Shown here: in pieces, positions 16,973 to 53,676 of the stretch
How the letters are laid out: the number at the start of each line of letters is the position of its first letter
How positions within the stretch are numbered: the first letter of the stretch is position 1
From: Patescibacteria group bacterium
Lineage (GTDB): Bacteria; Patescibacteriota; Patescibacteriia; Magasanikbacterales; GWA2-37-8
Direction of reading: 5' to 3'
Assembly: GCA_022710645.1 (NCBI GenBank)
Contig: JAKLGL010000001.1
Coordinates: forward strand, 343,296-407,295
Length of the DNA: 64,000 nucleotides
Program-made: the position numbers and the translations under genes
Notes under the pieces: generated by a model
Databases searched by the model: none
The model's input: only the letters and a program-made list of their open reading frames with translations
What the model was told of the DNA's origin: nothing

Positions 16973-16975
16973 AAT

Positions 16976-18094: not shown

Positions 18095-18096
18095 AT

Positions 18097-19230
18097 ATGA
18101 ACATCGGTATTGATATCCGTCCGTTGATGTCACCTATTCGCACCGGGGTCGGCGAATATACATATGAACTTTTAAACGCGATATTCCAAATTGATAAAGA
18201 AAATCAATATTTTTTGTTTTATAACAATCATAAAAACGTTGAAAACAATATTCCTCGTTGGGATCAACCGAACGTTCACTATGTAGTTAAAAAATATTCC
18301 AACAAACTTTTCAATTTGGCTCAGTTATTTTTAGCATGGCCAAAAATAGACAAAATGATCGCCAAACAAAACCGACTGGATAAGTTGGATTATTTTTTTT
18401 CACCCAACCTTAACTTTACAGCCCTAACCAAAAATGTAAAATATATTTTAACAATTCACGACTTGTCTTTTGAATTATTTCCGGAATTTTTCACTTACAA
18501 GGATTTTTTATGGCATAAAATATTAAATCCGAAAAAACAATGTCAACTCGCTTCTGTTGTTTTGACTCCGTCCAAAAACACTAAACGCGATTTGATAAAT
18601 ATCTATGCGCTTGATAAAAACAAAATAGAAACAATTTACCCCGGACTTTCTTCCGTTTTCCACACTTCAAAATCAAACGATGTCAAAAAATATAACTTGC
18701 CTGATAATTATGTTTTATTTTTGGGCTCAATCGAGCCGAGAAAAAATATTTTGAGTGTGATAGAAGCTTGGGAAAAAGCTTATTCCAAACTTCCACTTCC
18801 CTATCATTTGGTCATGGTCGGAGCCCCGGGATGGAAAAATAGCAAAGTTTTTGAAAAAATAAAAAACTCTCCTTTGCGAGAAAAAATAAATTTTATAGGA
18901 TATATAAAAAACGAAGATAAACCCGAAATATATCGTAAAGCGGCCGCGTTTATCTACCCTTCTTTTTATGAAGGCTTCGGTTTTCCGGTTTTGGAAGCTA
19001 TGCATTGCAAAACACCGGTTATCACCAGTAATAGATCTTCTATTCCGGAAATAACCGACGAAAACGCTTATTTGGTAGATCCGAATCGGCCATTACAAAT
19101 AACTGCCGGATTAATCAAAATATTAAACGACCAAAATTTATCAAATACTTTGAAAGAAACAGGTCAAAAAAGATCGCAAAATTTTTCTTGGGATATCGCG
19201 GCTAAGGAATTTCTAAAAATTTTGAAATAA
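18097..19230 (+). CDS. glycosyltransferase family 4
   Basis: IYPSFYEGFGFPVLEAMHCKTPVITSNRSSIPEI. Confidence 0.75.
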   Translation: MNIGIDIRPLMSPIRTGVGEYTYELLNAIFQIDKENQYFLFYNNHKNVENNIPRWDQPNVHYVVKKYSNKLFNLAQLFLAWPKIDKMIAKQNRLDKLDYFFSPNLNFTALTKNVKYILTIHDLSFELFPEFFTYKDFLWHKILNPKKQCQLASVVLTPSKNTKRDLINIYALDKNKIETIYPGLSSVFHTSKSNDVKKYNLPDNYVLFLGSIEPRKNILSVIEAWEKAYSKLPLPYHLVMVGAPGWKNSKVFEKIKNSPLREKINFIGYIKNEDKPEIYRKAAAFIYPSFYEGFGFPVLEAMHCKTPVITSNRSSIPEITDENAYLVDPNRPLQITAGLIKILNDQNLSNTLKETGQKRSQNFSWDIAAKEFLKILK

Positions 19231-19264
19231 AAAAGGAGGGAAAATCCCTCCTAAAAAAGAAAAT

Positions 19265-19579
19265 CTATTGCACGCAACGGATTTGAAATTTCTCCGCTAC
19301 GCCCTTTTCTTCTTGGGTGCGCAGAGGATTGCGCAAACAAGCCGAACCGCAACCCTTGCATTTTTCATGGTTACCTCGCCTGGTACAAACCAGACATTCA
19401 TAGATAATAGCCAGTTGCATTTCGTAAGAAAGTTTAAAGTCTAAACTCTTTTCTCCGCACGGCGGCGGGTCTTTCGAAAAAGATACAGCTTTTTTGTCCT
19501 CGACAACCCCGTTGGGATTACCGTAAGACCACCCTCTTTTACCTTCAAAAAAGGTTGGTGTGAAAGATGCCGATGCCAT
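19265..19579 (-). CDS. small Cys-rich hypothetical protein (possible metal-binding)
   Basis: 104 aa; CLVCTRRGNHEKCKGCGSAC cluster; strong SD (ggagg) 8 nt before the ATG; antisense-embedded within the plus-strand GT operon. Confidence 0.45.
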   Translation of the reverse strand: MASASFTPTFFEGKRGWSYGNPNGVVEDKKAVSFSKDPPPCGEKSLDFKLSYEMQLAIIYECLVCTRRGNHEKCKGCGSACLRNPLRTQEEKGVAEKFQIRCVQ

Positions 19580-19724
19580 GGATTTCCTCCGGCTGTGAAG
19601 ATTATTAAGAAAAAGATAAGGAGCGAAGACAATATTTTAAAACAGTTTTTTTTCATTGTCAAGCAATCTTTTAAAACCACTCAAAACTTGTCTTTTCTGA
19701 ATCTTAGGAGTTATAATAAAGGCT

Positions 19725-20840
19725 ATGAAAATAGGTATTGACGCTCGTCTTTACGGCCCCAAACAAGGCGGTTTAGGACGATACGTACAACAACTTATAG
19801 CAGGATTGGAAAAAACCGACGAAATAAACGACTACGTTGTTTTTTTGCGTAAAGAAAATTTTGAGCAGTATAACCCCGATAATCCTCGCTTTCAAAAAGT
19901 TTTAGCCGATATCCCTTGGTACGGTTGGAAAGAACAAATTTTACTACCGCAAATTTTAAACAAAGAAAAATGCGATTTTATTCATTTTCCTCACTGGAAT
20001 ATCCCCTTTTTTTATCGTGGAAATTTTATCGTTACAATCCATGATTTAATTCTCCTTCATTATCCGAGCCGCAAAGCCAGTACTCTGGGACCGTTTTCTT
20101 ATTTTTTAAAAAATATAGCTTACAAATTTATTCTGCGCTATGCAGTCAAAAAAGCCAAGCAAATCATAACTCCGAGCGAATTTACCAAACAAGATATCAT
20201 CAAAACATTGAGCGTTCCTGCGGAAAAAGTCATTGTAACCTATTTGGCTCCGACAAAATTAAATACTGACAACGAAAAAGAAATTTCATTGGCAAAATAT
20301 AATATCACTAAACCTTATTTACTTTATGTCGGGGTAGCATATCCGCATAAAAATTTGGAACGACTTGTCCGGGCTTGGAAAATTTTTGAAGAAAAAAACC
20401 AAAATTTTCAATTGGTTTTAGTTGGTAAAAAAAATTATTTTTATGACCGTTTGATAAATTCAAACATTTTTAAAAATTGTAAAAATATTATTTTTACCGA
20501 TTTTATTCCTGATAGCGAGTTATCTTCCTTATATCAAAATGCTATCGCTTACGTTTTTCCATCTTTGTACGAAGGTTTTGGTTTACCGCCGCTTGAAGCC
20601 ATGCAATACAATATCCCTGTTATTTCTTCAAAAAATTCTTGTTTACCGGAAATTTTAGGAAATGCAGCTTTATATTTTGATCCGAAAAACGAACAAGATA
20701 TGTATACGGCAATTTGTCTTGTTTTAACAAACGAACAAAAACGTCACGAACTTATCAACAACATCTCTTCTGTTTTGGCTAAATATAGCCAAGAAAATAC
20801 AACGGAAAAAACTTTATCGGTTTACCAAAAAATGGTATAA
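19725..20840 (+). CDS. glycosyltransferase family 4
   Basis: VFPSLYEGFGLPPLEAMQYNIPVISSKNSCLPEI. Confidence 0.75.
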   Translation: MKIGIDARLYGPKQGGLGRYVQQLIAGLEKTDEINDYVVFLRKENFEQYNPDNPRFQKVLADIPWYGWKEQILLPQILNKEKCDFIHFPHWNIPFFYRGNFIVTIHDLILLHYPSRKASTLGPFSYFLKNIAYKFILRYAVKKAKQIITPSEFTKQDIIKTLSVPAEKVIVTYLAPTKLNTDNEKEISLAKYNITKPYLLYVGVAYPHKNLERLVRAWKIFEEKNQNFQLVLVGKKNYFYDRLINSNIFKNCKNIIFTDFIPDSELSSLYQNAIAYVFPSLYEGFGLPPLEAMQYNIPVISSKNSCLPEILGNAALYFDPKNEQDMYTAICLVLTNEQKRHELINNISSVLAKYSQENTTEKTLSVYQKMV

Positions 20841-20897
20841 TAGTCACGTACGAATTACGAAACGATACGAAATTACGATCGGATTATATTTTTTTCC

Positions 20898-23396
20898 ATG
20901 TTTAAAAAAAGACTTCAACTTCGTCGTTGCAATTTTTGCAATAAACCCGGACACAACAAAGCAACTTGTCCGGAATTTTTGAATTTGCAAAAAGAAAAAT
21001 CTTTGATAAATGACGAAAAGAGAATTCGCGTTTTCTATCATAAACCCGAACAAAAAAACTCCGACACCGTCTCCCCTCACTTGTTAAGTTTAAAAAACAC
21101 TGGAAATTACTGGGAAAATTTGGAAACCGCATCTCCGGAACCGAAAAAAGACGAATGGGAAAAATTTTATGAAGAAATAAAAAAAGATTCGGTAACGCCC
21201 GTTTATAAAACAACGTCTAATTTTATTTTACCCGAAAAAGAAGAGGTTTGCCCGTCTTTTGAAAAAGACGACGACGGTCTTGATTTTGAAAAGATGGTAG
21301 CCTCAATTAAAAGAGAAAATGCAAAAATAAAACAAAATTCTCCAAAAAAACAAATAAATAAAATCCCTAAAAATTGGATTAAATATTCATTTTTGCGACA
21401 AAATAACTGGAGAAAAACTTTGGCCGGCGCCATGATGGCTCTTATTATTTTGGCTTTACCTTTGCAAACTCGAACATTTTACCAAAACATCAAAACCAGT
21501 ACCGGAAAAATAACCGCCAACAGTACCGAAGGATTTATGGCCTTGCAAGATTCCACAGCCGCTATAATTTCAGCCGATTTACCTTCAGCGCAAGGGTCAA
21601 TTACCGAGGCTTTACAAAAATTTAACGAAGCAATAGGAGAAATACAAAATCACAAAATCTTGCAAGCTGTGGTAAAAAGTATTCCTTTGGTAAGTTCAGA
21701 AGTACAGAGCCGACAAAATCTCATCACCGCCGGACAAAAAATCGCTTTGGGTAATACTTATCTAATCAAAGGAATATCCGAAGCCAATAATGTTTCTTCA
21801 ACTCCTTTACAACGACTAAAAGTTATTTCCGATCATTTAAATTTTGCCATTCCCAATTACGAACAAGCGTTTGAAGATTTAAATGAAGTAAAATTGGAAG
21901 TTTTACCTTTTGAATATCAAACTTCTTTCAAGGATTTTAAAACCCTTTTTGGCGGAATGCTAAGCGATCTCAAAAATATTTCCGAACTTGGAAGAAATAT
22001 CGATGAAATTTTCGGCGGACAAGGATTGCGTCGTTATTTATTGGTTTTTCAAAATGAAGCCGAACTTCGCGGTACCGGAGGATTTTTGGGCAGTTTCGCT
22101 ATCTTGGAAATAAAAGACGGAAAAATACAAAACCTGGAAATACCATCCGGAGGTTCTTATGATTTACAAGGTCAACTCAGTGTCTTGGTAGAACCGCCGG
22201 CTCCTTTACTTTTATCCAACAAAAAATGGGAATTTCAAGATGCCAATTGGTTCCCGGATTTTAAAGCTTCCGCGGAAAAAATGCTTTGGTTTTACCGTTA
22301 TAGCAGAAACATAACCTTGGATGGAGCGATAGCAATAAACTCTTCGGTGTTAACCAGATTACTTGCGCTAATCGGACCTGTTTCCGATGAACAAAGAAAT
22401 TTGATTTTGGACAAAAATAACGCTTTGTCTTCTTTGCAAACAGTAGTAGAAGAAGGAGCTGAAAAAGAAATTAATAAACCAAAACAAGTTTTATCCGATC
22501 TCGGACCACAAATACTTTCTTCTTTATTATCTTTAAAACCTGAAAATACTTTGCCTTTACTTTTTAATCTTAACGAAGCTTTGAATCAAAAAGAAATCCA
22601 GGCTTATTTTACCGCTCCAACCACGCAAAAAGCCATAGAATCTCTCGGATGGGGAGGAAGAATCATCAAAACTCCGGATGATCGCGATTATTTGATGGTA
22701 GTCAATAGTAATATTCAAGGACAAAAAAGCGATGCGCAAATAAAACAAAAAATTTATCACCAGGCTCTCGTTGAAGAAGACGGGTCTATTGTCGATAGTG
22801 TAACTATCACTCGAAATCATGAAGGTCAATCCGGTCAAAAATTTTACGGACAAACAAATATTGATTACATCAGAATTTATGTTCCGGAAGGAGCGGAATT
22901 GATCTCTGCTCAAGGTTTTACCTGGCCGGATGAAAAATATTTCCGCGCACCGGCCAAAGGAGCTGTTAAAGATACGGATCTTTTATCCTTGGAACAAGAA
23001 ATAGGTTTTGATCAAATATCCGGAACTCGTATTACCAAAGAATTTAACAAAACGGTTTTCGGTAATTGGATCATAACCGAACCCGGAGCAGTTAACACGA
23101 TTCAATTCATTTATCGATTACCTTTCAAGGCTTTTTCTAAAGAAAAAACCGATGACAAAAAAAGTTTATCCTCTTTGTTAATGCAAAATAAATACATTTC
23201 TCAATACCAACTTTTGGTTCAAAAACAATCAGGTTGTCGCAGCACTTTCGAATCTCAAGTCATCTACCCTGCCGGATGGGAATCGACTTGGAACGACGGA
23301 TTAAACAGCGGGTTAGCTCTTAATGGACATTTTGTAGCGGAGACATCTTTAAAAACCGATGAAATTTGGAGTTTAATAATGGAAAAAAACAATTAA
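20898..23396 (+). CDS. large membrane-anchored extracytoplasmic protein with N-terminal CCHC zinc knuckle; RGTGG region reminiscent of DUF4012-type proteins of polysaccharide loci
   Basis: 832 aa; CNFCNKPGHNKATCPE = C-x2-C-x4-H-x4-C; single TM (LAGAMMALIILALPL); LLVFQNEAELRGTGGFLGSFAILE block. Confidence 0.5.
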   Translation: MFKKRLQLRRCNFCNKPGHNKATCPEFLNLQKEKSLINDEKRIRVFYHKPEQKNSDTVSPHLLSLKNTGNYWENLETASPEPKKDEWEKFYEEIKKDSVTPVYKTTSNFILPEKEEVCPSFEKDDDGLDFEKMVASIKRENAKIKQNSPKKQINKIPKNWIKYSFLRQNNWRKTLAGAMMALIILALPLQTRTFYQNIKTSTGKITANSTEGFMALQDSTAAIISADLPSAQGSITEALQKFNEAIGEIQNHKILQAVVKSIPLVSSEVQSRQNLITAGQKIALGNTYLIKGISEANNVSSTPLQRLKVISDHLNFAIPNYEQAFEDLNEVKLEVLPFEYQTSFKDFKTLFGGMLSDLKNISELGRNIDEIFGGQGLRRYLLVFQNEAELRGTGGFLGSFAILEIKDGKIQNLEIPSGGSYDLQGQLSVLVEPPAPLLLSNKKWEFQDANWFPDFKASAEKMLWFYRYSRNITLDGAIAINSSVLTRLLALIGPVSDEQRNLILDKNNALSSLQTVVEEGAEKEINKPKQVLSDLGPQILSSLLSLKPENTLPLLFNLNEALNQKEIQAYFTAPTTQKAIESLGWGGRIIKTPDDRDYLMVVNSNIQGQKSDAQIKQKIYHQALVEEDGSIVDSVTITRNHEGQSGQKFYGQTNIDYIRIYVPEGAELISAQGFTWPDEKYFRAPAKGAVKDTDLLSLEQEIGFDQISGTRITKEFNKTVFGNWIITEPGAVNTIQFIYRLPFKAFSKEKTDDKKSLSSLLMQNKYISQYQLLVQKQSGCRSTFESQVIYPAGWESTWNDGLNSGLALNGHFVAETSLKTDEIWSLIMEKNN

Positions 23397-25297
23397 CAAA
23401 TTATTTTATGCCGGAGGAAAAAAATATTTTGGCGGCTCGACGTCCAAAAAAACGCCGAACCGATTATTTTGACAAAGAAATTGGCGAGGCTAAACAAAAA
23501 GAAATAGCTGATAAAATCGCTAAAATTTACGAGGATCCGGATGGAAAAATTCCAGACATGAAAGAGATAAAACAACGTCGCAAAAGTCCTCTTTTGCGTT
23601 TTTCCGTTTTTCTCTTGGTTTTGACTTCAATAATGGCCTTTTTTGCTTGGACCGGATTATTTTATTTTCCCAAGGGAGAAAAATTTTCCGAAGAAAAAAT
23701 ATCTCTTATTATCGAAGGTCCTTCGGAAACAGAACTTGGCGGATCCGGGATTTATAAAATAATAGTAAAAAACGAATTGGACGTTCCCTTAAAAAATCTT
23801 ATATTAAACGCTAATTATCCGGACGGATTTGTTTTTGTTAGCAGTACTATTTTAGCGCAAAATTTGGGAAATACGGAATGGACATTGCCGGATATCGGTC
23901 CTTTTGACGTTTTAGAGTTAAGCATCGCGGGAAAAACTTTCGGTTCTCTTAATCAACAGGGTTCTTGGCGTATTTTTCTCAATTATCAACCGGGAAATTT
24001 AAATTCTCAAATGCAAAAAATAACGACATTTAATACCAATCTGTCGTTATCCCCTTTTATTTTAACTTCCAAAGCGCCGGAAAAAGCAGCTTATGGAACC
24101 GACGTGGAATTATCTTATACCTTAGAAAATAAAAACGATTATTTGCCGGAAAAAATGTATTTAACTTTGAAAATACCGGATAATTTTTCTATTATTTCTT
24201 CTTCACCTTCTTTGGACAAGGACAATCGTTTTGTCATAACACCTACCAGTACTTCTTATTTTCCAAAAACTTTCAAAATAATTGGTCGTTTTAACGGTGA
24301 GATAGAAACCGAAGAACAAATTCAAAGTTTGCTTGAATTACCGGTTTTGGCCGCCAGACAAACTTATCAAATAGGAAAAACAGAAAACAAAATAGCTCTT
24401 TCTCGCACCGCTTACCTGATGACTTTAGCCATTAACGGATCCATAAACGATCTTAGTGCCAAACCCGGAGATCCGCTTAATATAACCGTAAATTTTAAAA
24501 ATGTCGGCAAGGCTTCTTTAAAAAACGCTTCTCTGTTTTTGAAACTTGACTCTCCGGCGATCAAAAAACAAAGCATAATGGATTGGCCGGAAATATCCGA
24601 TCCGCTAGACGGAGATATAGTCGGCAAACAAATAAACGACAACTTACGCAACGGCACCATAACTTGGAACAAAAATAAATTGAAAGATTTGACTGAAATA
24701 AAACCTAATCAGGAAATAAATGTAGATATTAAATTACCTATAAAAGACGGATCCAAAATAGAGCTTTCGGATTTGAAAGAATATATGATTTCCGTCGCAA
24801 CAGAGATAACTTTTACAGATGAAAACAAAACTCAAAAAACTATTTCCGGAAACCCTATACAGATCACCCTGAATTCAGATTTCAGTTTTGAAAAAAGAGT
24901 TTTAGTCGGAGAAAACGGTAGCGGCAAGGATCAAAGAAATTTTACCTGGATACTCCATAACACTTTCCATCCTTTAAAAAATATCGAATTATCAGCCGAA
25001 GCTTACGGCGATATTACCTTTGTCTCCTCTTCCTTACCTGCGGGAATTCTAAATTACAACCCTAAAGATAAGGTGATTGTTTGGACCATTGCCGAAATGC
25101 CGGAAAGTGTCGATATTCTGGCTCTACCTTTTTCTCTAATAGTCAACAAAAAAAATCCTTCTCAGCAGGTTCTACTATCAAAAGTCAAAATAAAAGCCGA
25201 AGATGTCGTAACCGGCCAACCAATCACTTTTATGGGTGGAGAAACACTGCTTTTTGAAGAAAACGACGGAACGCAAGAAGAACCTTACGGAGAATAA
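23366..25297 (+). CDS. hypothetical membrane-anchored extracytoplasmic protein
   Basis: 643 aa; basic N-terminus, one TM (LLRFSVFLLVLTSIMAFFAWTGLFYF), long beta-rich ectodomain; 31-nt overlap with the upstream gene; SD ggag before the ATG. Confidence 0.55.
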   Translation: MEFNNGKKQLTNYFMPEEKNILAARRPKKRRTDYFDKEIGEAKQKEIADKIAKIYEDPDGKIPDMKEIKQRRKSPLLRFSVFLLVLTSIMAFFAWTGLFYFPKGEKFSEEKISLIIEGPSETELGGSGIYKIIVKNELDVPLKNLILNANYPDGFVFVSSTILAQNLGNTEWTLPDIGPFDVLELSIAGKTFGSLNQQGSWRIFLNYQPGNLNSQMQKITTFNTNLSLSPFILTSKAPEKAAYGTDVELSYTLENKNDYLPEKMYLTLKIPDNFSIISSSPSLDKDNRFVITPTSTSYFPKTFKIIGRFNGEIETEEQIQSLLELPVLAARQTYQIGKTENKIALSRTAYLMTLAINGSINDLSAKPGDPLNITVNFKNVGKASLKNASLFLKLDSPAIKKQSIMDWPEISDPLDGDIVGKQINDNLRNGTITWNKNKLKDLTEIKPNQEINVDIKLPIKDGSKIELSDLKEYMISVATEITFTDENKTQKTISGNPIQITLNSDFSFEKRVLVGENGSGKDQRNFTWILHNTFHPLKNIELSAEAYGDITFVSSSLPAGILNYNPKDKVIVWTIAEMPESVDILALPFSLIVNKKNPSQQVLLSKVKIKAEDVVTGQPITFMGGETLLFEENDGTQEEPYGE

Positions 25298-25310
25298 TAA
25301 AGCCCATTTA

Positions 25311-25338
25311 AAATACCGCCTTTTGGCGGTATTTTTTT
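25311..25338 (+). terminator. intrinsic terminator
   Basis: ataccgcc-tttt-ggcggtat + ttttttt. Confidence 0.6.
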
Positions 25339-25370
25339 GACACAAACATCTAAATGACTTAAAATTAAAG

Positions 25371-26870
25371 GTGTTATTGGCCTCTTTGCTTCTCAATATT
25401 TTTATGTTCTCACGTTATCAAAAAATCTTGCTTTTTGTCAGTTTGGCGGCTATTTTTTTATTGGTTTATCAACCTCACAAAAGTTATCCGTATCCTTTTC
25501 ATGTTGATGAATGGCACCACATCACCGAAGCTATTCGTTTGGCAAATCCGACAAATTACTATCATTATTTAACCCTGGAACCAAACAGGCCCAACAGCGG
25601 TTTGGAAGTCGGATTCCATTTTTTTCTTTATTTGATTTCACTGGTTACGGATCTGGTTTTAAGTTATAAATTTTTACCGGCAATCTGGGCCTCTTTTACC
25701 GGCGCCACTCTCTTTTATATTGTTTATAAAAAAACTGAAAATAATTACTGGTTGGCTTGGTTAGCTCTTTTTTTCTTCGGTTCCATAAAAACCAATGCGA
25801 ATTTAATGGGGCTCTGGTTTTTCACGCCGATGACTTTTTCTTTACCTTTTATTTTGTGGTATTTTTATTTTTTTGACAAAGGAATACAAACACAAACCAA
25901 AAAAAACTTGCTTCTGGGATTGTTAATTTTGATTTTATTGATACCGTTTCACCCTCTTTCCGTGCTTTTTGCCCTACCAATTTTATCAATCTATTTTTTA
26001 ATCAATTATAAATTCTTAATCAAGGAATATAAATTCTTTGCAATTTTTCTTCTACCGGCGATTGTCGGCTTCGTTTTTTATAAACTAACGCATAATTTAT
26101 CTATTTTACAAACATTTAAAAATATTTTTGGACAATTGATTTTTAGTCATGGATGGGGAGTGTTGGAACTAAAGAACTCCCCTTTTGAACTTTACAACTT
26201 CATTGTTTATTTATTTGCTTTCTTGGGAATTTACTTTATTTTTCAACAAAAAAAACAAAAAGAGTTTTCTTTGTTTCTCATTTGGTCTCTATATCTCATA
26301 CTTCTTATTCTCATATACCGTTTTACCGGTTTTTCTCTTTTTAGCCCATATCAACGAAATTGGTATTATTTGGGGTTAAGCTTGCCGATTCTTAGCGCAA
26401 TCGGTTTTTATTATACGTTAATAAAAATAAAAAACTTTAACGAACATCCTCAATGGGCCAATCTGAGTAATTTTTTTATTTTGATCATAAGTTTGATTAC
26501 TCCGTTTTTTCTCTATGGAAATTATTACAAACTACCCCAAAACACCGACTTATATCGAGTTATTAGCCGAACCGATTACAAAGTTTTGGAATATTTGAAA
26601 GATTTACCTCGAGGCACGGTTATGGCTAACCCTCTGATTTCTACAGCTATTTTCCCTGTTTCAGGACAAGAAACCGTCGGAACTATAGCTTTTTATGGCA
26701 ACAGAAAAGACGCAGAAAATTTTTATCTTTCCAAAAGCTGTGCGGAAAAAAGAAGAATAGTTAAAAAACATCGAGTTTACTATGTTCTTACCAAAAACAA
26801 TCTTGGTTGTGTTTTTGGAACCTTACTTAAAGAAATCGGCGGAACCAAAATTTATAAGACAAATATATGA
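25371..26870 (+). CDS. polytopic membrane protein, putative GT-C fold glycosyltransferase (ArnT/PMT-like)
   Basis: 499 aa, more than 10 predicted TM helices; immediately followed by, and overlapping, a GT2 polyprenyl-phosphate glycosyltransferase gene (classic GT2 + GT-C pairing); function is inference. Confidence 0.4.
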   Translation: MLLASLLLNIFMFSRYQKILLFVSLAAIFLLVYQPHKSYPYPFHVDEWHHITEAIRLANPTNYYHYLTLEPNRPNSGLEVGFHFFLYLISLVTDLVLSYKFLPAIWASFTGATLFYIVYKKTENNYWLAWLALFFFGSIKTNANLMGLWFFTPMTFSLPFILWYFYFFDKGIQTQTKKNLLLGLLILILLIPFHPLSVLFALPILSIYFLINYKFLIKEYKFFAIFLLPAIVGFVFYKLTHNLSILQTFKNIFGQLIFSHGWGVLELKNSPFELYNFIVYLFAFLGIYFIFQQKKQKEFSLFLIWSLYLILLILIYRFTGFSLFSPYQRNWYYLGLSLPILSAIGFYYTLIKIKNFNEHPQWANLSNFFILIISLITPFFLYGNYYKLPQNTDLYRVISRTDYKVLEYLKDLPRGTVMANPLISTAIFPVSGQETVGTIAFYGNRKDAENFYLSKSCAEKRRIVKKHRVYYVLTKNNLGCVFGTLLKEIGGTKIYKTNI

Positions 26871-27997
26871 GCAATAAACTTATAAGCGTGATTCTACCGT
26901 GTCGTAACGAAGAAGAGGCTTTGCCGAAATGTCTACAAACGATACAAAAAATCATAGCTGAACAAAAATTAAACGCTGAAATAATTGTCTCCGATTCTTC
27001 CGTGGATTCTTCTCCGAAAATAGCTTTGGATTTTGGCGTAATTTTGGTCAAACATGATCAAGAAGGATACGGCCGAGCTTATTTAGAAGGTTTCCAAGCC
27101 GCCAAAGGTGATTTTTTCTTTATCGCCGATTGTGACGGTACTTATGATTTTGCCGAAATACCAAATTTTATAAAATTTTTACAAGAAGGATATGATTTTG
27201 TCATTGGAAATCGTTTGAAAGGCAAAATAGATAAAGGAGCCATGCCCTGGCTCCATCGATATGTAGGCAGTCCGGTTTTAAATTTTATCTTCAGACTTTT
27301 TTTTAGACGTAAAATCGGCGATATAAATTGCGGGATGCGCGCTTTTACCAAAGAATCTCTGCAAAAAATGAAACTGAAAACCGCCGGCATGGAGTTCGCT
27401 TCGGAGATGATTATCAAAGCTGTAAAAAAAGATTTACATATCAAAGAAGTCATTATCGATTATCACACTCGTTTGGGAAAATCAAAATTAAAAACTTTCG
27501 CCGACGGCTGGAGACATCTACGTTTTATGCTCTTATACAGCCCCGGTTTTCTCTTTTTGGTTCCGGGTCTATTTCTATTTTTTTTCGGCGCAGGATTAAT
27601 GTCGCTTTCTTATTTTAACAAATTGTCTTTTGCCGGTTTAAATTTTTATTATCACCCGATGTTTTTTGCCTGTTTATTTTTGATAGTCGGTTATCAGCTT
27701 CTTATTTTCGCCGTTTTTGCCAAAACTTACGCCATAACCCATTTAGGAGAACAGAGCAAAACTTTGGATAAAATACATAAAATTTTTACTATTGAAAAAG
27801 CCGGTTTGATAGGTTTATTTTTGGCAATAACTGGTTTATTGGTGTTTGTTTCCATATTTTATAAATGGTGGAGCGGAGGTTTTACTCAATTACAGGAAGT
27901 TAAAAATCTTTTGATCGCTTTAACTTTGGCTTCGCTGGGTTTTCAAACAATTTTTTCTTCATTCATGCTCAGTATTTTGGGTATTAAAGAACGCTAA
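26867..27997 (+). CDS. glycosyltransferase family 2 with C-terminal TM domain (polyprenyl-phosphate sugar synthase, GtrB/ArnC/DPM1-like)
   Basis: ISVILPCRNEEEAL, VSDSSVDSS, FIADCDGTYD (DxD) motifs followed by 4 TM helices. Confidence 0.7.
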   Translation: MSNKLISVILPCRNEEEALPKCLQTIQKIIAEQKLNAEIIVSDSSVDSSPKIALDFGVILVKHDQEGYGRAYLEGFQAAKGDFFFIADCDGTYDFAEIPNFIKFLQEGYDFVIGNRLKGKIDKGAMPWLHRYVGSPVLNFIFRLFFRRKIGDINCGMRAFTKESLQKMKLKTAGMEFASEMIIKAVKKDLHIKEVIIDYHTRLGKSKLKTFADGWRHLRFMLLYSPGFLFLVPGLFLFFFGAGLMSLSYFNKLSFAGLNFYYHPMFFACLFLIVGYQLLIFAVFAKTYAITHLGEQSKTLDKIHKIFTIEKAGLIGLFLAITGLLVFVSIFYKWWSGGFTQLQEVKNLLIALTLASLGFQTIFSSFMLSILGIKER

Positions 27998-29079
27998 TGA
28001 AAATCGCCATCTTCCACAATTTTTTGGATAATATAGGCGGAGCCGAAATGGTTACGCTTATTTTGGCCAAAGAATTAAAAGCTGATATTTATACCACAAA
28101 TATTGACAGAGAAAAAATCAAAAAAATGGGTTTTGATGACATTCACATTATTTCCATAGGCAAAGTTCCACTTAATGCTCCATTCCGACAACAATTTGCT
28201 TTTTGGCGTTTTCGATTTTTAAATTTAAAACAAAAATACGATTATTACTTAATTTGCGGCGATTGGGCAATGTCCGGAGCGGTTAAAAATAAACCTAATT
28301 TATGGTATGTCCACTCCCCTATCAGAGAAATTTGGGATTTGTACGAATACACCAGAAAAAATACCGTTCCTTTTCTGCTGCGTCCTTTTTTTGATTTATG
28401 GGTCTTTTTTAATCGTTATTACAACAAAAAATATGTTGCTCATGCGGAAAAAATAGTCTGCAATTCCGAAAATACGCGCCATCGCGTAAAAAAATTTCTC
28501 AATCGCGAAGCTGAAGTTATCAATCCGCCGATTGAAACGCAAAAATTCAAATATTCAGAAAACGGACATTTTTGGTTAAGCGTCAATCGACTAATCAACC
28601 ACAAAAGAATAGAAATGCAATTAGCCGCTTTTGCCAAAATGCCAGATAAACGTCTGATAATCGTCGGCAGTTACGAAGATTCAAAACATTTTAGACAATA
28701 TGCGAATTTTATCTTGAAAAACAAGCCTGACAACGTAGAGATAAAAAGTTGGACAACCAGAGAAGAGTTGATTGAACTTTATGCTCGTTGCCGAGGTTTT
28801 ATCGCCACTGCCAGAGATGAAGATTTCGGTATGACCGTATTGGAAGCCATGGCCGCCGGAAAACCGGTCATAGCCGCAAACGAAGGCGGATACAAAGAAA
28901 CGGTAATCAACGACATTACCGGAAAACTCATAGATGATATCAATGAAGAAAAAATAATTTTTGCCGTCAATGAGGTGGAAAAAGACCCTTCAAAATACAA
29001 AGATGCTTGCTTGGCGCAAGCATCCAAATTTGATACTGCTGTTTTTGTAAAAAAAATCAAACAAAAACTGCAAGATTGA
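27997..29079 (+). CDS. glycosyltransferase family 4
   Basis: FIATARDEDFGMTVLEAMAAGKPVIAANEGGYKETV. Confidence 0.75.
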   Translation: MKIAIFHNFLDNIGGAEMVTLILAKELKADIYTTNIDREKIKKMGFDDIHIISIGKVPLNAPFRQQFAFWRFRFLNLKQKYDYYLICGDWAMSGAVKNKPNLWYVHSPIREIWDLYEYTRKNTVPFLLRPFFDLWVFFNRYYNKKYVAHAEKIVCNSENTRHRVKKFLNREAEVINPPIETQKFKYSENGHFWLSVNRLINHKRIEMQLAAFAKMPDKRLIIVGSYEDSKHFRQYANFILKNKPDNVEIKSWTTREELIELYARCRGFIATARDEDFGMTVLEAMAAGKPVIAANEGGYKETVINDITGKLIDDINEEKIIFAVNEVEKDPSKYKDACLAQASKFDTAVFVKKIKQKLQD

Positions 29080-30195
29080 TCACCTTTTAAATAGACCTCT
29101 CAATCTCAAAATCAAACCTCGATATCCCGCCAAAAAACCGGGGTATTTTTTAAACATTCTTTTTAAAAACAAATCCCATTTTTCCAAAATTCTGAAAACA
29201 ATACCGCTTTTGATTTCGGCGATCTGTTTTTCTTTTTCAAAAATAATCTTATCTTTATTGTCGGATTCTTTTTTTTGTCTTGCGAGCATTTTTTCCCCAA
29301 CAATTATTTCTTTGTCTTTTTTTGAAATTATTTCGTTTTGTCTGATTATTTCTTCATTTTTTCGAGCGATAACATTATCTTTTTCTTCTAAAGCGGCTTC
29401 TTTTTCAATAATCATCTTTTCTCTTTCAACAACCAAAGAATTCAAATCAATATTTTTTTGTTCTTTTTCCAAATTTTTTTCAATTAACGAAATCAAACGA
29501 TCAACGGTTCGTACTCTGTAGTGTTTGAGGTCTTTTTCCAAAAAATCAATTACCTTATTTTTGCAATCTTCATAAGAACCGGAAATTTCCGGGATTTTTT
29601 TCTTTATTTTGAAAATAATCGTTTCCGGATCGTTCAATAATTCATCGAAATTTACAGTTATTTTTTCTTTATTCGAAATATTTTTTTCCAAAATATCCCA
29701 ATATTTTCGACAAAGTTTGATAGATTTTTCAAAATCAAAACTATCTCTTTTTTGGAGAGATTCCGCTATTTCAACTTCATTGCGCCAAACAGTTATTGTT
29801 TTTATTTCGCAACCAAAATCTTTCAAAACCTCTTCATACAAAGGAAGAAGCAGGCATAATCTGGGGTCTTTGATGCCGAATATTTTTTTATCCGCTAACT
29901 CCTTTTTTATGACTTCTTTCAACTCTTTTCTTATTTGTTCCAATTCCGGATTTTTCAAAAAGTCAGACGGAAATTCTCCGATATCGTCCCAAGTCGTACC
30001 TAAAATTTTCAATATTTTTTCGTTGATAAAATACAGATTTTGATTTTCAAAATAACCTTTTGAATTATCCTTTGTCGGCGGCATTAACTTGTCACCAAAA
30101 TCCAGACCCAGGATATTCAAAACCCCCGACAAAGCCGAGGTCCCGCTACGGTGCATCCCTAAAATCAAAATCACTATTCTGGAAAAATCTTTCAT
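29080..30195 (-). CDS. sulfotransferase-family protein with long C-terminal coiled coil
   Basis: N-terminal ILGMHRSGTSALSGVL (PAPS 5'-phosphosulfate-binding loop type) and IKDPRLCLLLPLY (3'-phosphate-binding RDPRD-like); C-terminal 110 aa are K/E-rich heptad coiled coil; 4-nt overlap with upstream wzt. Confidence 0.6.
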   Translation of the reverse strand: MKDFSRIVILILGMHRSGTSALSGVLNILGLDFGDKLMPPTKDNSKGYFENQNLYFINEKILKILGTTWDDIGEFPSDFLKNPELEQIRKELKEVIKKELADKKIFGIKDPRLCLLLPLYEEVLKDFGCEIKTITVWRNEVEIAESLQKRDSFDFEKSIKLCRKYWDILEKNISNKEKITVNFDELLNDPETIIFKIKKKIPEISGSYEDCKNKVIDFLEKDLKHYRVRTVDRLISLIEKNLEKEQKNIDLNSLVVEREKMIIEKEAALEEKDNVIARKNEEIIRQNEIISKKDKEIIVGEKMLARQKKESDNKDKIIFEKEKQIAEIKSGIVFRILEKWDLFLKRMFKKYPGFLAGYRGLILRLRGLFKR

Positions 30196-30959
30196 ATGGC
30201 GTTTTTAATATAAGCGTTTATCACTTCTTCCGGGTCGCCTGTCTTTTTCACAACTCCTTTGTCCATCCAAACCGCCTTATGGCAATATTTTTTTATAAAT
30301 TCCAAATTATGACTGACTATCACTATGTTCGCTCCTCCGGCCAACAGTTCTTCTATTTTGGAAGTCGCTTTATTGCGAAAAGTCAGATCAGCTCCGGCTT
30401 CCAAAGCTTCATCAATCAGAATTATTTCCGGTTGACGATGAGTAATACTGAAGATAGTGGCGGAAAAACTCAATCGTGAGGTCATACCGGAAGAAAATTT
30501 GAAAACTTGCGTATCTAAATAATCTCTCAGTTCGGAAAAATCGACGATTTCATCAAATCTTTCTTTTATTTCTTTATTGTTCAAACCCAACAACGAACAA
30601 ATAAGATAGATATTTTCTCGCATGGTTAATTTGGGCATTAAACCGCGACTGAAACCGGCCAAATATAACACTTGTCCGTTTATTTCCAATTTACCTTCAT
30701 CGGGTAAATAAATCCCGGCCAAAAGTCGTAAAAGGGTGGATTTTCCCGATCCGTTCCTGCCGACAATACCCAAAATTTTACCGTTTTCAAAATCCAAAGT
30801 TACGTTTTTGAGAGCCCAAAATTCTTTTTTTTCGACTTTACGGTTCAAAATTCCAAACAAACTGCCGAGCAAGCCGTCTTTTTTTTGTTTTCCCAAATCA
30901 AACTTTTTACCGATATTTTCAACAACGATTCTTTTTTTATCATCATTCTGGATAATCAT
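30192..30959 (-). CDS. ABC transporter ATP-binding protein, polysaccharide export type (Wzt/TagH/KpsT-like)
   Basis: Walker A GIVGRNGSGKSTLL, signature FSSGMTSRL, Walker B IILIDEAL. Confidence 0.8.
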   Translation of the reverse strand: MIIQNDDKKRIVVENIGKKFDLGKQKKDGLLGSLFGILNRKVEKKEFWALKNVTLDFENGKILGIVGRNGSGKSTLLRLLAGIYLPDEGKLEINGQVLYLAGFSRGLMPKLTMRENIYLICSLLGLNNKEIKERFDEIVDFSELRDYLDTQVFKFSSGMTSRLSFSATIFSITHRQPEIILIDEALEAGADLTFRNKATSKIEELLAGGANIVIVSHNLEFIKKYCHKAVWMDKGVVKKTGDPEEVINAYIKNAI

Positions 30960-31717
30960 ATATTTTCGGCAAATTTAGTTTTAAATTTTTCAAACAAAAA
31001 CAATCCGACCACAAAAGCGATAATTGCGTAAATAAAAGCCAAAAAAATAAAAATCGGTTCGGGAAAATGATGATAAATAACAAGATTGCGACTAATTTCC
31101 AAAAAAACCACTAACGGATTGGCTAAAAATAAAATTTTATTCGGAACAATATAAAAAATCGGCGTGGCAAAAAACAATATCCTGGAAATTATCGCCCAAA
31201 CATTGCTCAGGTCTGTTATATAAACTCCCAATGTCGCCAAAATAAAAGAAGTACCCAAAATAAAAATAAAAAACAACAAAAAAACCGGTAAATAAAACAC
31301 CATGCTTAAAGCAAAGATTTTAAAAGTAATAAGAAATAAAGCAAAAATCAATAATTCAAAAAAATGAGAAAAAGCCGTCTGTAATAAAACAGCTAAAACC
31401 AAAGATTCCGAAGTTATTTTCATGGATTTGATAAAAGGACCGTTTCCGGAAACAGCTTTTACCGCCTGAGTAGTGGCAAAAGAGAAAAAGTTAAATATTA
31501 TCAAGCCCCAGATAAGATACAGCGGGAAATACTCTATAGTAGAACCGAGATTTTTACGAAAAACAAAAAACAAAATCAGAAACATCAATAACGGATCGAG
31601 TAAATACCATAAAACTCCGAGGAATTTACCCTCGGTTCTCAATTTAAAATTGGCTCTAGCCAAAGAAAAACCCAAAAAAACAATGTCTTGAATTTTCTTT
31701 TTATCAAAAAATTTCAT
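30956..31717 (-). CDS. ABC-2 type transporter permease (Wzm/TagG-like)
   Basis: 253 aa, 6 TM helices, overlaps wzt by 4 nt. Confidence 0.7.
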   Translation of the reverse strand: MKFFDKKKIQDIVFLGFSLARANFKLRTEGKFLGVLWYLLDPLLMFLILFFVFRKNLGSTIEYFPLYLIWGLIIFNFFSFATTQAVKAVSGNGPFIKSMKITSESLVLAVLLQTAFSHFFELLIFALFLITFKIFALSMVFYLPVFLLFFIFILGTSFILATLGVYITDLSNVWAIISRILFFATPIFYIVPNKILFLANPLVVFLEISRNLVIYHHFPEPIFIFLAFIYAIIAFVVGLFLFEKFKTKFAENI

Positions 31718-32649
31718 TTTAAAAATTCGGTTAATATTTTTTCCGCTTGTTTTTCATTTTCCACCCAATGAATATTTTCATCTTTTTTAAACCATGTCAT
31801 TTGACGCTTGGCATAATGTCGAGTATCTTGTTTCAACCAATCCAAAGCTTCGTCTAAACTCATTTTTCCTTCGATATAGTCTCTCATCTGACGATAACCT
31901 ATTCCGCTCATCGACGGTAAATCCCAAGAATATTTTTGTGCCAATTTTTTGGCCTCTTGAACCAAACCTGTTTCAATCATCCTTTCGCAACGGCTATTTA
32001 TCCTATCGTAAAGCGATTCTCTGTCTATTTTAATTCCAAGCTGTAAAGCGTTAAATAATGATTTACCTTTTTTTTGTTGGCTCAAAAAAGATTCCCCTGT
32101 GGAAAGCACCACTTCCAAAGCGCGAATAACCCGTCGCGGATTTTGTAAATCTATTTTTTCGTAAGTTTCCGGATCATTTTCTTTGAGTAGTAACAATCTT
32201 TCTTCCGGAGTTTTATTTTCCAATTCGCGACGTAAAGCTAAATTCGGTTCGACTTTGGGAATATCCAAATTATCAACAATAGCTTTGATATAGAGGCCGG
32301 TTCCGCCGACCAAAAAAGGAGTTTTATCCTTTTTAATTATTTCTTTTATTGCCTTGAAAGCTTGTTCTTTATAATCACTAAGCGTAAAACTTTCATCCGG
32401 CTTTATTATATCCAACAAATAATGATTAATACCATCAACTACATATTCATTAAAACTTTCAGCTTTCAACTTTTGACTTTCAACTCGTAACGGCTTAGCC
32501 GTGGCAATACTCATTTCTTTGTAAATTTGTCGGGAATCGGCATTTATAATTTCTCCGTTAAATTTTTTGGCTAAATCTATAGCCAAATCGGTTTTCCCCG
32601 AAGCGGTTGGTCCGCAAATAACCACTAATTTTGGAAGTTTGTTTTTCAT
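31714..32649 (-). CDS. miaA: tRNA dimethylallyltransferase
   Basis: VVICGPTASGKTDLAIDLAKKFNGEIINADSRQIYKEMSIATAKP. Confidence 0.85.
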   Translation of the reverse strand: MKNKLPKLVVICGPTASGKTDLAIDLAKKFNGEIINADSRQIYKEMSIATAKPLRVESQKLKAESFNEYVVDGINHYLLDIIKPDESFTLSDYKEQAFKAIKEIIKKDKTPFLVGGTGLYIKAIVDNLDIPKVEPNLALRRELENKTPEERLLLLKENDPETYEKIDLQNPRRVIRALEVVLSTGESFLSQQKKGKSLFNALQLGIKIDRESLYDRINSRCERMIETGLVQEAKKLAQKYSWDLPSMSGIGYRQMRDYIEGKMSLDEALDWLKQDTRHYAKRQMTWFKKDENIHWVENEKQAEKILTEFLK

Positions 32650-32726
32650 ATTATTTTCATTATATCAAGTTTGTTTTTTTAGTCAAAAAAAAAGCTCCTT
32701 AATAAGGAGCTTTGAACAGAGTTTGG

Positions 32727-34887: not shown

Positions 34888-36288
34888 TCAATCTAAAATC
34901 CTTTCGCCCTTCAATATCCATTTCTCTGCAAAGTTTATTTTCACTTTTACAAACTGTCCGATCATTTTTTTATTTCCCAAAAACTGTACCATTTTCATTT
35001 CATTGCTATTACCAGTACAAACCCCATCTTTGAATTCATCCACCAACACCTCCACTGTTTGTCCCAAATACTTTTGATTTTTACGCAAAACTATTTCTTC
35101 CATCAAATCCTGCAAGACGCGCCAACGGCGTTTTTTTTCAGTAATTTCCACATCATCTTTATAAATTTTCGCCGCTACCGTTCCACTGCGCTGACTATAC
35201 ATCGCCAAATAAGCGATATCAAAATCGCATTGTTTGTACAAATCCACTGTTTGTTCAAATTGTTTTTTATTTTCACTACAAAATCCAACGATGATATCCG
35301 TACCAATGGCGATACCCGGAACTTCCGCGCGAATTTTTTTCACCAAATTTATAAATTCTTCGCGTGTATATTTACGATTCATTTTTTTGAGGATCTCATC
35401 GTCTCCCGCTTGCACCGGTAAATGAAGGTAGTTAACCATTTTAGGCAAGCTTAGAGCTTTGATTTGATAATCATCAAAATATTGCGGATCGGGAGCGGTA
35501 TAAAAAATACGAAAATCTCCGGGTATATTATTTATTTCCCAAAGTAAAGCACCAAAATCAGAATACTTTAATTTTTCAGTTTTTGAAAGCGGCGGATAGA
35601 AAGGATTTTTCTTATTATAATTTTCCGGATCAGGCGCGCGATAATTATTTACCACTTGACCGAGCAAAGTGATTTCTTTGGTGCCATTTTTTACCGCTTT
35701 TTTAATTTCTACCAAAATTTCTTTTATCGGTCTGTTTTTTTCTCTACCGCGGGCGTAAGGCACCACGCAATATGAACAAAAATTATTACAACCGATTTGA
35801 ATAGTGATAGAAGCTTTATAATCCAAATCTCTTTTGGGATCTATATTCCAATATTCCCCCACTTCTTCAAAATTTATCTTGAACCAACCAGGTCGAAGTT
35901 CACGCAACCAAACTGGCAATCTTGGTAAATCAATAATCGGAAAAAATAAATCCGCGCTGGGAATTTTTTTTCGCAAACGTCCATCTTGGTCTCGTCCGGG
36001 CATACAACCGGTCACAGCAAAAACCAGTTCCGGTTTTTGATTTTTCAATTTCAAAATTTTTCTGTTTATCCCGCTGGTTCTGTCTTCCGCCATTTGACGC
36101 ACACTACAAGTATTTACCAACACCAAATCCGCTTTTTCCAGAACAGTTGTTTCTTTCATCCCCAAAGACGTCAAAAGCGCCCCAGCGCGTTCTGAGTCGT
36201 TTTTATTCATCTGACAGCCGAAAGTGACTATGTGATACTTCTTAGTCATATTTAAGGCCATTTTAAACGTTTTGAGCGGGTTTAGCAA
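34888..36288 (-). CDS. miaB: tRNA-i6A37 methylthiotransferase
   Basis: UPF0004 N-domain YHIVTFGCQMN, radical-SAM CNNFCSYCVVPYARG, TRAM C-terminus. Confidence 0.85.
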   Translation of the reverse strand: MLNPLKTFKMALNMTKKYHIVTFGCQMNKNDSERAGALLTSLGMKETTVLEKADLVLVNTCSVRQMAEDRTSGINRKILKLKNQKPELVFAVTGCMPGRDQDGRLRKKIPSADLFFPIIDLPRLPVWLRELRPGWFKINFEEVGEYWNIDPKRDLDYKASITIQIGCNNFCSYCVVPYARGREKNRPIKEILVEIKKAVKNGTKEITLLGQVVNNYRAPDPENYNKKNPFYPPLSKTEKLKYSDFGALLWEINNIPGDFRIFYTAPDPQYFDDYQIKALSLPKMVNYLHLPVQAGDDEILKKMNRKYTREEFINLVKKIRAEVPGIAIGTDIIVGFCSENKKQFEQTVDLYKQCDFDIAYLAMYSQRSGTVAAKIYKDDVEITEKKRRWRVLQDLMEEIVLRKNQKYLGQTVEVLVDEFKDGVCTGNSNEMKMVQFLGNKKMIGQFVKVKINFAEKWILKGERILD

Positions 36289-53539: not shown

Positions 53540-53676
53540 AATTTCCTTTATCTTACTCAAAAATTTAAAAAAAAGCAAATCCAGACATACCACTTGCCAA
53601 AACCTGACTTTTGATATATAATTGAAGCAAATCGCTTCCAAACGCGAAAATTTTAATGTTATTTAACTAAAAATAT

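Follow-up and report, generated by a model that had tools for sequence, protein, structure and literature searches.

A putative stalked sulfotransferase coupled to a Wzm/Wzt exporter in a Magasanikbacteria glycan locus: a WbdD-like layout with a possible sulfate cap

Coiled-coil-ruler termination is the accepted means by which glycans dependent on an ATP-binding cassette (ABC) transporter are "made to measure", and the caps known are methyl, methyl-phosphate and Kdo only (PMC11231755). WbdD of Escherichia coli O9a and Klebsiella pneumoniae O3 and O5, a kinase-methyltransferase with a ruler, is a stand-alone protein encoded beside wzm-wzt, with its N-terminal head distal on a heptad stalk and with a C-terminal amphipathic helix; in WbbB of K. 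pneumoniae O12 and in ORF6-O7, the terminator, the coiled coil and the polymerase are parts of one polypeptide (PMC11231755). Here, we describe a gene whose product is predicted to share this layout, in a 64-kb stretch of DNA (the window; contig JAKLGL010000001.1) from a Candidatus Magasanikbacteria metagenome-assembled genome (MAG), that is, from a bacterium of the candidate phyla radiation (CPR). The gene (29080..30195, minus strand) is the fourth and final one of the minus-strand run miaA-wzm-wzt-ST and encodes a 371-aa protein with a head, a heptad stalk and an amphipathic C-terminus. Its sequence is exactly that of HRY36597.1, annotated as 'hypothetical protein' of a Candidatus Magasanikbacteria MAG and encoded on a 563-kb contig. 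The reading that fits best is that of a stalked, exporter-coupled sulfotransferase (ST) of the type that uses 3'-phosphoadenosine 5'-phosphosulfate (PAPS), which would cap the non-reducing end of a lipid-linked glycan and whose stalk would contribute to chain length. We give this reading as a whole a probability of about one half.

The likeness of the ST to WbdD, pointed out in a first-pass annotation of this DNA, extends to the stand-alone form, the position beside wzm-wzt, the N-terminal head, predicted to be distal, the heptad stalk and the predicted amphipathic C-terminal end, while the catalytic head is different. Unlike WbdD, the ST has a sulfotransferase fold, lacks both a kinase and a methyltransferase domain and is not homologous to WbdD in sequence, and its stalk is shorter (about 80 residues), with non-canonical heptads. 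Moreover, the Wzt of the window, unlike that of the WbdD system, lacks a binding module, and the CPR host lacks lipopolysaccharide. In Pfam and NCBIfam scans, the protein gave no family match to the known terminator heads (the WbdD kinase/methyltransferase, GT99 and GT137). It resembles WbdD by analogy and does not belong to the protein family of WbdD. Since the gene comes from a CPR bacterium, its glycan is no O-antigen, unlike those of the systems with which the first-pass annotation had compared it.

The single-polypeptide arrangement of WbbB also has its counterparts. Many members of the ST family, including that of locus L009, consist of an ST domain, a stalk, a junction and GT2/GT4 modules, and are encoded directly after wzm-wzt. 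Unlike in WbbB and ORF6-O7, the place of the GT99 Kdo transferase or of the methyltransferase-kinase pair is taken in them by an ST, and the window protein is unfused. A further locus to be considered is that of the Aeromonas salmonicida A450 O-antigen, in which wzt (438 aa) is followed by a gene for a 216-aa 'hypothetical protein with sulfotransferase domain' and by wbbB, and in which the middle gene was noted but left unexplained by the authors (PMC4483657). By its description, that gene lies directly after a long wzt, as in the ST family; unlike the target, its product has no stalk and is encoded beside a WbbB with a terminator of its own. In the freely accessible literature, subscription-only papers being outside the scope, we found neither an ST-type terminator nor a link of an ST to chain termination. 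Systems of this type are known, and the novelty would lie in the chemistry of the cap and in the CPR host. If the reading is true, chain termination would gain sulfate as a new chemistry, and the Wzt binding modules encoded beside these STs would represent a new ligand class.

The sulfotransferase-fold catalytic domain (aa 1-228; 29512..30195, minus strand) was delimited with the help of an AlphaFold model, Foldseek and a family search. The model of the target had a mean predicted local distance difference test (pLDDT) score of 91.5, with 95-98 over the head. When it was compared with the PDB by Foldseek, the matches ranked 1-14 were all PAPS sulfotransferases, namely tyrosylprotein sulfotransferase (TPST), CurM-ST, OLS-ST, Stf1 and Stf9 (E 4e-5 to 3e-4). 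The head shares with the solved STs (TPST1/2, CurM, OLS, Stf1/Stf9 and heparan sulfate 3-OST) the fold, the [PH]RSG[ST][ST] loop and the R...S motif. Unlike them, it carries the signature motifs of its own family, N-x-K-G-[YF]-[FY]-E and K-D-P-R, and it is only 12-16% identical to them, with TM-scores of 0.32-0.49 when normalised to the target structures. The family itself is very large: a word-indexed search with the head gave 928 matches, and an exhaustive search of 50%-identity cluster representatives gave 13,010 at E<=1e-10. Three of the homologs, with E-values against the target between 1e-44 and 1e-47, exceeded the PF00685 (Sulfotransfer_1) threshold of 22 bits: P0006 (32.4 bits; E 1.6e-47), P0010 (23.7 bits) and P0009 (23.3 bits). 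Since the target itself stays below the Pfam threshold, its superfamily membership rests on transitive homology and fold.

An alignment of 114 sequences revealed 13 invariant residues (H15-R-S-G-T-S20, N44, G47, E50, K109, P111, R138 and S146), all 13 of which are present in the target. The HRSGTS string, to which the first-pass annotation had assigned a PAPS-binding role, lies within the 5'-phosphosulfate-binding loop G13-M-H-R-S-G-T-S20 (30136..30159, minus strand), which is invariant in both alignments A1 and A2 and is the only part of the protein that PF13469 matches. The second string named there, KDPRL, turned out to be real and conserved as well, K109-D-P-R112 (29860..29871, minus strand) being invariant or nearly so at the end of the beta strand 105-109, but it is probably not the 3'-phosphate-binding motif. 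We dropped it from that role, as it is R138-N-E-V-E-I-A-E-S146 (29758..29784, minus strand; R138 and S146 invariant) that aligns with solved sulfotransferases; the KDPR motif may instead belong to the active site or to the acceptor side. A sequence search of the PDB with the target as a single query returned noise from the K/E-rich tail only, e.g., fatty-acid-binding proteins. A profile search, in which sulfotransferases appeared at E 0.005-1 among low-complexity tail matches and which was taken for motif alignment only, aligned the family 'RnplEVakSL' with the 'RNPKDTAVS' 3'-phosphate motif of PDB 5x2b. The R138..S146 segment is thus, to judge from its sequence, probably the canonical 3'-phosphate-binding motif, and the target protein would be expected to use PAPS.

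The structural ranking also contained P-loop kinases (gluconate, adenylate and dephospho-CoA kinases), which occurred from rank 15 onward (E 7e-4 to 7e-3), as if the head could be a kinase that phosphorylates the chain end, as in WbdD. However, Thr19 of the GMHRSGTS loop stands at the position of the Walker-A lysine, the R...S 3'-phosphate motif is present, the 14 best structural matches are sulfotransferases, homologs pass the PF00685 threshold, and PAPS-synthesis cassettes occur in related loci. We rejected the kinase identity on account of the missing Walker lysine and of the structural ranking, and regard it as hardly credible. That the head is a sulfotransferase-fold enzyme, as the first-pass annotation had supposed, and that its family is barely covered by Pfam is well supported by the motifs, the homologs and the model.

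The head is followed, after a short linker, by a tail that is 143-146 aa long in all. In the AlphaFold model, this tail starts with one unbroken helix, which spans residues 251-330 and would measure about 12 nm if straight, and goes on with helices 332-350 and 354-370. The heptad-repeat helical stalk (aa 249-332; 29200..29451, minus strand) consists of 12 heptads of the motif x-K-[DN]-x-x-[IL]-[IA] and is rich in K (18%), E (17%) and I (17%). Along residues 246-332, hydrophobicity repeats every 7.0 residues, and the power of this period is 232.8, as compared to 12.2 +/- 12.1 in shuffled sequences, and none of 2000 shuffles reached this value. Of the 110-aa K/E heptad coiled coil described in the first-pass annotation, the period and the heptads were therefore found, while the tail is longer and its heptads are not of the canonical a/d type. 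The stalk likely forms an oligomeric coiled coil. The same heptad motif occurs in the tails of the distant homologs P0005 and P0008.

Two properties of the tails are relevant to the function of a ruler, although indirectly. One is the size of the only indel that separates the target from ortholog P0002, exactly one heptad (7 aa) within the stalk; the heads of the two orthologs are 67% identical, with the motifs intact. The other is that the tails of 106 stand-alone homologs vary from 0 to 394 aa (median 160) and are often built of tandem repeats. In 43 of the 86 homolog tails of at least 80 aa, the heptad power exceeded the 95th percentile obtained with shuffled sequences. The orthologous group of the target is rare, comprising P0001 and P0002 only, and a metagenome scan with the target as the sole query revealed one distant relative.

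The two helices beyond the stalk (aa 332-350 and 354-370; 29086..29202, minus strand) are basic (net charge +4 each), amphipathic and not transmembrane-like. In the model they look like an end that would bind the membrane or a partner. The first of them aligns with a motif, S-x-S-W-[KR]-x-T-R-P-L-R-[RK], which is located at the stalk end, near the C-terminus, in 36 of the 106 stand-alone homologs (e.g., P0010, P0028, P0041 and P0052), and whose counterpart in the target, 'SGIVFRILEKW', is divergent. Among 42 long fusion proteins, 18 have the S-x-S-W junction motif just ahead of the polymerase modules, and by its position in these sequences it may serve as a hinge at the membrane or as a docking site for the polymerase. 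The closest relative of the target in species-representative genomes is the 1878-aa protein of the CPR locus L009 (Paceibacterota), which is 34% identical to it over the head, stalk and junction. In the alignment of the two junctions, 'IKSSLTWRMQKVVDRW' stands against 'IKSGIVFRILEKW'; the junction motif of the L009 protein is at aa 317-333. Past the junction, the L009 protein continues with a methyltransferase and four glycosyltransferase modules.

Similar fusions are common in the family. In 120 further 50%-identity representatives, the ST domain was N-terminal in 113 (94%), and 45 of these 120 proteins were at least 700 aa long. Heptad signal followed the head in 23 of 42 long (>=700 aa) proteins with an N-terminal ST, and in Pfam maps of seven large members the ST and a spacer came before GT2 and GT4 modules, to which a methyltransferase was added in some of them. 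The occurrence of fused and unfused members indicates that the head-stalk-junction cassette exists both alone and joined to polymerases.

The coupling of the ST gene to the exporter genes was confirmed at the level of the gene junctions. All three of the 4-nt ATGA overlaps by which the first-pass annotation had linked the four genes pairwise could be read on the minus strand (miaA/wzm, 31714-31717; wzm/wzt, 30956-30959; wzt/ST, 30192-30195), and all three are kept, together with the synteny, in the locus of ortholog P0002 (67% identical). A single promoter-like site (32659..32686, minus strand), found by a consensus scan only, lies just upstream of the miaA start; with TTGACT-16-TG-TATAAT it has 11 of 12 matches, and is probably the start of the miaA-wzm-wzt-ST transcription unit. 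The proposed co-operonic arrangement with Wzm/Wzt is therefore supported by both the overlaps and this site. The wzm-like gene (30956..31717, minus strand) encodes an ABC-2 permease (PF01061 at 31.9 bits, which exceeds the gathering threshold; a tblastn match at 2.6e-14 with wzm of locus L004). The wzt/tagH-like gene (30192..30959, minus strand) encodes a 255-aa ABC ATPase that matches PF00005 only in Pfam; its best NCBIfam matches are TagH and galactan Wzt, at about 1e-49 and below their cutoffs. The first gene of the run, miaA (31714..32649, minus strand), encodes a tRNA dimethylallyltransferase (Pfam IPPT, 4.6e-75; TIGR00174, 292.7 bits, above cutoff).

At its other end, the ST gene meets the convergent GT4 glycosyltransferase gene (27997..29079, plus strand; PF00534, 2e-29). 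The stop codons of the two genes (TGA at 29077-29079 and tca at 29080-29082) are separated by 0 nt and not by the 1 nt reported in the first-pass annotation. They abut in the same way in the ortholog locus L001 (5228-5233), with TAA|TCA there and TGA|TCA in the window. A terminator-like hairpin for the ST gene (29001..29025, minus strand; 10 pairs and a T-rich tail, found by a pattern scan only) lies 55-80 nt beyond the ST stop, within the 3' end of the GT4 gene. With the stops abutting and the hairpin inside the GT4 coding region, the ST and GT4 transcripts must overlap at their 3' ends, as had been proposed.

The coupling of miaA to the exporter genes is itself kept in the ortholog and may reflect mere genome compaction. 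A gene for a MiaB-like radical-SAM/TRAM methylthiotransferase (34888-36288, minus strand) lies 2 kb upstream of miaA on the same strand.

The genomic company of relatives was surveyed in 71 GTDB species-representative loci with a complete ST open reading frame (ORF). A Wzt-type ATPase gene was present within 10 kb of the ST gene in 31 of them, and in 14 it was located immediately upstream on the same strand. When loci L004, L005 and L008 are added, there are 17 independent loci in which the ST gene directly follows wzm-wzt. The carbohydrate-binding module of Wzt (Wzt_C), which we scored by phmmer on the C-terminal Wzt halves only, was found in 13 of the 17 adjacent Wzt proteins (420-630 aa). 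The other four, which gave no match to the module, are 247-293 aa long and come from the CPR locus L009, Omnitrophota (L018), Saprospiraceae (L063) and a Pseudomonas MAG (L072). Genes of PAPS supply occur in this company as well. An adenosine 5'-phosphosulfate (APS) kinase gene lies within 10 kb of the ST gene in 9 of the 71 loci. The wzm-wzt-ST cassette is preceded in L004 by cysN and genes for a sulfate symporter, an APS kinase and a cysQ-like phosphatase, and in L008 (a Sulfurovum MAG) by cysD, cysN, two APS kinase genes and cysQ. L014 contains an APS kinase-cysN-cysQ set and cysD, and in L006 a family member occurs together with cysD, cysNC and further sulfotransferase genes.

Locus L005 of Ectopseudomonas chengduensis reads rmlBDAC, wzm, wzt (452 aa, with Wzt_C), the stalked ST gene and a gene for a 1022-aa GT4+RgpF enzyme, a polymerase of the rhamnan type. 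By Pfam, L005 has no other terminator candidate, neither a methyltransferase nor a kinase nor a Kdo transferase. As the fused form of the ST is carried by cultured Dyella jejuensis, complete cassettes, stand-alone and fused, are available in cultured relatives, which makes the hypothesis directly testable.

These loci also bear on the question of the acceptor. The acceptor might not be a glycan at all but a protein Tyr or Ser residue, or a lipid, and the position of the ST gene after wzt might be incidental in a compact genome. TPSTs are indeed among the best structural matches of the head, and the presence of the unrelated tRNA gene miaA in the same run shows that sharing an operon is in itself weak evidence in CPR bacteria. 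Nevertheless, 17 independent and distantly related loci have the ST gene next to wzm-wzt, the ST domain is fused to glycosyltransferase modules in family members (45 of the 120 representatives reaching at least 700 aa), and the lack of a signal peptide suggests action at the cytoplasmic face. We therefore consider a non-glycan acceptor improbable.

The mechanism that we propose on these grounds is as follows. The cytoplasmic PAPS-type head (aa 1-228) would be carried at the far end of the stalk of about 80 residues, and the basic amphipathic helices would keep the protein at the membrane and/or at the glycosyltransferases that polymerise the glycan. As it has no signal peptide, the ST would work at the cytoplasmic face of the membrane, where lipid-linked glycans are built. 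Made jointly with the Wzm/Wzt ABC-2 exporter via translational coupling, it would act before export on the polyprenol-linked glycan supplied by the neighbouring phosphoglycosyl transferase and GT4 enzymes. Only those chains that are long enough to touch the head would be sulfated, at their growing (non-reducing) end. As the terminal sulfate would block extension, the length of the stalk would help to set the length of the chain. The sulfated glycan would probably end up on a surface acceptor, possibly a protein, with the participation of an adjacent oligosaccharyltransferase-like enzyme of the GT-C fold. The family-wide links to wzm-wzt, to Wzt modules, to PAPS genes and to polymerase fusions support a chain-terminating ruler at the level of the family, while for the Magasanikbacteria gene itself, whose Wzt lacks the module, we infer such a role; the part of the first-pass annotation that concerned it stands to this extent.

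Several observations weigh against this mechanism. The window Wzt has no C-terminal carbohydrate-binding module, its alignment with the 441-454-aa Wzt proteins that contain one being confined to their nucleotide-binding half (residues 7-241), and every terminated system known so far has a Wzt with such a module (PMC11231755). If the exporter lacks a module that reads the cap, export in this CPR bacterium would not be gated by the cap. In the survey, about 40 of the 71 loci showed no Wzt within 10 kb of the ST gene. Several related loci encode additional, stalk-less sulfotransferases, so their glycans may be sulfated along the chain, with the stalked ST possibly being one more decorator. The hydrophobic residues of the stalk occupy three adjacent heptad positions (occupancy 0.58, 0.92 and 0.75) instead of a/d, and its 3.5-residue harmonic is weak (equalled by 63 of 2000 shuffles). 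As to the head, the first-pass annotation had suggested a check against hidden Markov models of the Sulfotransfer_1 and _3 families, in which three homologs passed the Sulfotransfer_1 threshold and the target passed neither: it scored 17 bits with PF13469 (Sulfotransfer_3), against a threshold of 27 and over residues 9-27 only, did not match PF00685 in the Pfam scan and gave no match in the NCBIfam scan. In the literature searched, we found no biochemical data on any family member. Finally, CysD, CysN, APS kinase, CysQ and sulfate-permease seeds taken from the loci of relatives gave nothing below E 0.04 in the 64-kb window, a Pfam survey of the other ORFs of the window revealed no sulfate-activation domain, and CPR genomes are metabolically reduced.

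The alternative that draws most on these points is that of a decorating ST, which would sulfate internal residues of the glycan, while its stalk and amphipathic end would only oligomerise or tether it and would have no effect on chain length. It would fit a Wzt that does not read a cap, the many loci without a nearby Wzt and the atypical heptad pattern, which is not that of a rigid two- or three-stranded coiled coil. It would also fit the presence of two or three sulfotransferases in several related loci. For example, L090 (JGI 3300017977) and L091 (GCA_030614535.1) encode the stalked ST and stalk-less Sulfotransfer_1, _2 and _3 proteins, and L090 also encodes 1705-aa and 2053-aa multi-glycosyltransferase proteins, a gene content that suggests heavily sulfated polymers in uncultured bacteria. 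Yet a decorator should need proximity to the polymerase, whereas the head is nearly always distal from the polymerase modules or the junction motif, and the stalk-less sulfotransferases of the same loci would be better suited to internal decoration. Moreover, 13 of the 17 adjacent Wzt proteins have a binding module, L005 contains no other terminator candidate, and the sole stalk indel between the orthologs is a whole heptad. We thus regard internal decoration as a serious alternative, though a somewhat unlikely one, and retain capping of the chain end as the preferred reading.

The lack of sulfate-activation genes in the window is in turn what would be expected if the head were catalytically idle for want of PAPS and the protein were only a scaffold of the assembly complex. 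The minimal biosynthetic capacity of CPR bacteria (PMC9698310) is in favour of this as well. On the other side, all the invariant residues are kept and the motifs are intact in both orthologs, which argues for selection on catalysis, and the window amounts to only about 11% of a 563-kb contig. An idle head is therefore quite improbable in our view, and an active, capping ST remains preferred. A search of the freely accessible literature for PAPS synthesis in CPR bacteria or Magasanikbacteria returned nothing, and the locus raises the question of where a minimal CPR genome gets its PAPS.

The glycan on which the ST would act could be the product of the plus-strand locus that ends at the ST gene (15554 to 29079) and encodes an initiating transferase and five glycosyltransferases (four GT4 and one GT2). 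The initiating phosphoglycosyl transferase gene (15554-16972; TIGR03025, 384 bits, above cutoff) is followed by three GT4 genes identified in the Pfam survey (16976-18094, 18097-19230 and 19725-20840), and the fourth is the GT4 gene convergent with the ST gene. Directly upstream of the latter lies a GT2 gene (26867..27997, plus strand; PF00535, 5e-26), whose product has a membrane C-terminus and is of the AglJ/Dpm1-like polyprenyl-phosphate hexose synthase type; it matches TIGR04182 (AglJ) at 5.4e-41, below the cutoff, and its ortholog contains GT2_TM_C. We saw neither Wzx nor Wzy in this locus. Between the glycosyltransferase genes there are two others, for an 832-aa DUF4012 protein (20898-23396, plus strand) and for a 643-aa DUF11/CLIPPER-like repeat protein (23366..25297, plus strand; sub-threshold PF01345 and TIGR01451, and annotation of the ortholog). 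They overlap by 31 nt, and both are present in the ortholog locus. Their products are candidate surface proteins or glycan acceptors, as judged from sequence features.

The gene that follows them (25371..26870, plus strand) overlaps the AglJ-like GT2 gene by 4 nt and encodes a 499-aa polytopic membrane protein, to which a GT-C fold was assigned by AlphaFold and Foldseek. The protein has no Pfam or NCBIfam match. Of its 227 homologs, which have 40-52% identity, almost all belong to CPR bacteria, DPANN archaea and Omnitrophota. The model (pLDDT 92.4; predicted template modelling score 0.91) gave STT3/AglB/PglB only at Foldseek ranks 1-19 (E 3.5e-8 to 6.6e-6; TMq 0.53-0.63), other GT-C enzymes being weaker. 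The H44-x-D46-E47 motif, invariant in the family, may be the acidic motif of external loop 1 (EL1). The WWDxG motif is absent from both the sequence and the conserved columns of the family, and we therefore liken the protein to oligosaccharyltransferases by fold only and do not class it as one. Going by the model, ultra-small prokaryotes may have in it a glycan transferase that has so far gone unrecognised. Taken with the AglJ-like GT2 and the DUF11 protein, it gives a hint that the exported glycan is transferred to a surface protein, so that the end product might be a sulfated protein-linked glycan.

Such a route would not be without parallel. The surface-layer (S-layer) glycan pathway of Geobacillus stearothermophilus NRS 2004/3a comprises WsaP, the WsaE methyl cap, Wzm/Wzt and the WsaB transferase, and Halobacterium makes sulfated lipid-linked N-glycans. 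In these systems, a glycan on a lipid carrier is capped or sulfated in the cytoplasm, exported and put on a surface protein. As far as such a description goes, the window contains similar components: an initiating transferase, GT4 enzymes, Wzm/Wzt, the oligosaccharyltransferase-like GT-C enzyme and a DUF11 surface-type protein. Unlike in Geobacillus, the cap would be a sulfate and not a methyl group, and the candidate for the transferase is STT3/AglB-like in fold and lacks WWDxG.

When the observations on the family and on the window are joined, a wider reading can be put forward, which we offer tentatively, as possible rather than probable. In it, sulfate would be a new class of cap, added by a very large uncharacterised family of stalked STs that occur, stand-alone or fused to polymerases, across many bacterial phyla. 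The cap would be recognised by the carbohydrate-binding modules of Wzt in Proteobacteria and Campylobacterota. In CPR bacteria, the exporter would do without the module, and the sulfated glycan would pass to the CPR/DPANN-specific oligosaccharyltransferase-like enzyme, which would decorate a surface protein. CPR envelopes are almost unknown, and from this locus one would predict a surface glycan that is sulfated, carries negative charge and is possibly linked to protein, which would be relevant to the attachment of these bacteria to host cells.

Several other genes of the window were recorded in passing. The largest, a 2720-aa ORF (55627-63789, minus strand), had no Pfam match at E<=0.001. Three more encode a 624-aa protein with a pilin-like segment of the type IV secretion system (T4SS) kind (4546-6420, minus strand), a type II/IV secretion ATPase (41551-43254, plus strand) and a FemAB-family peptidyl transferase (52478-53641, minus strand), and agree with what is expected of a CPR bacterium, an envelope of the Gram-positive type with pili.

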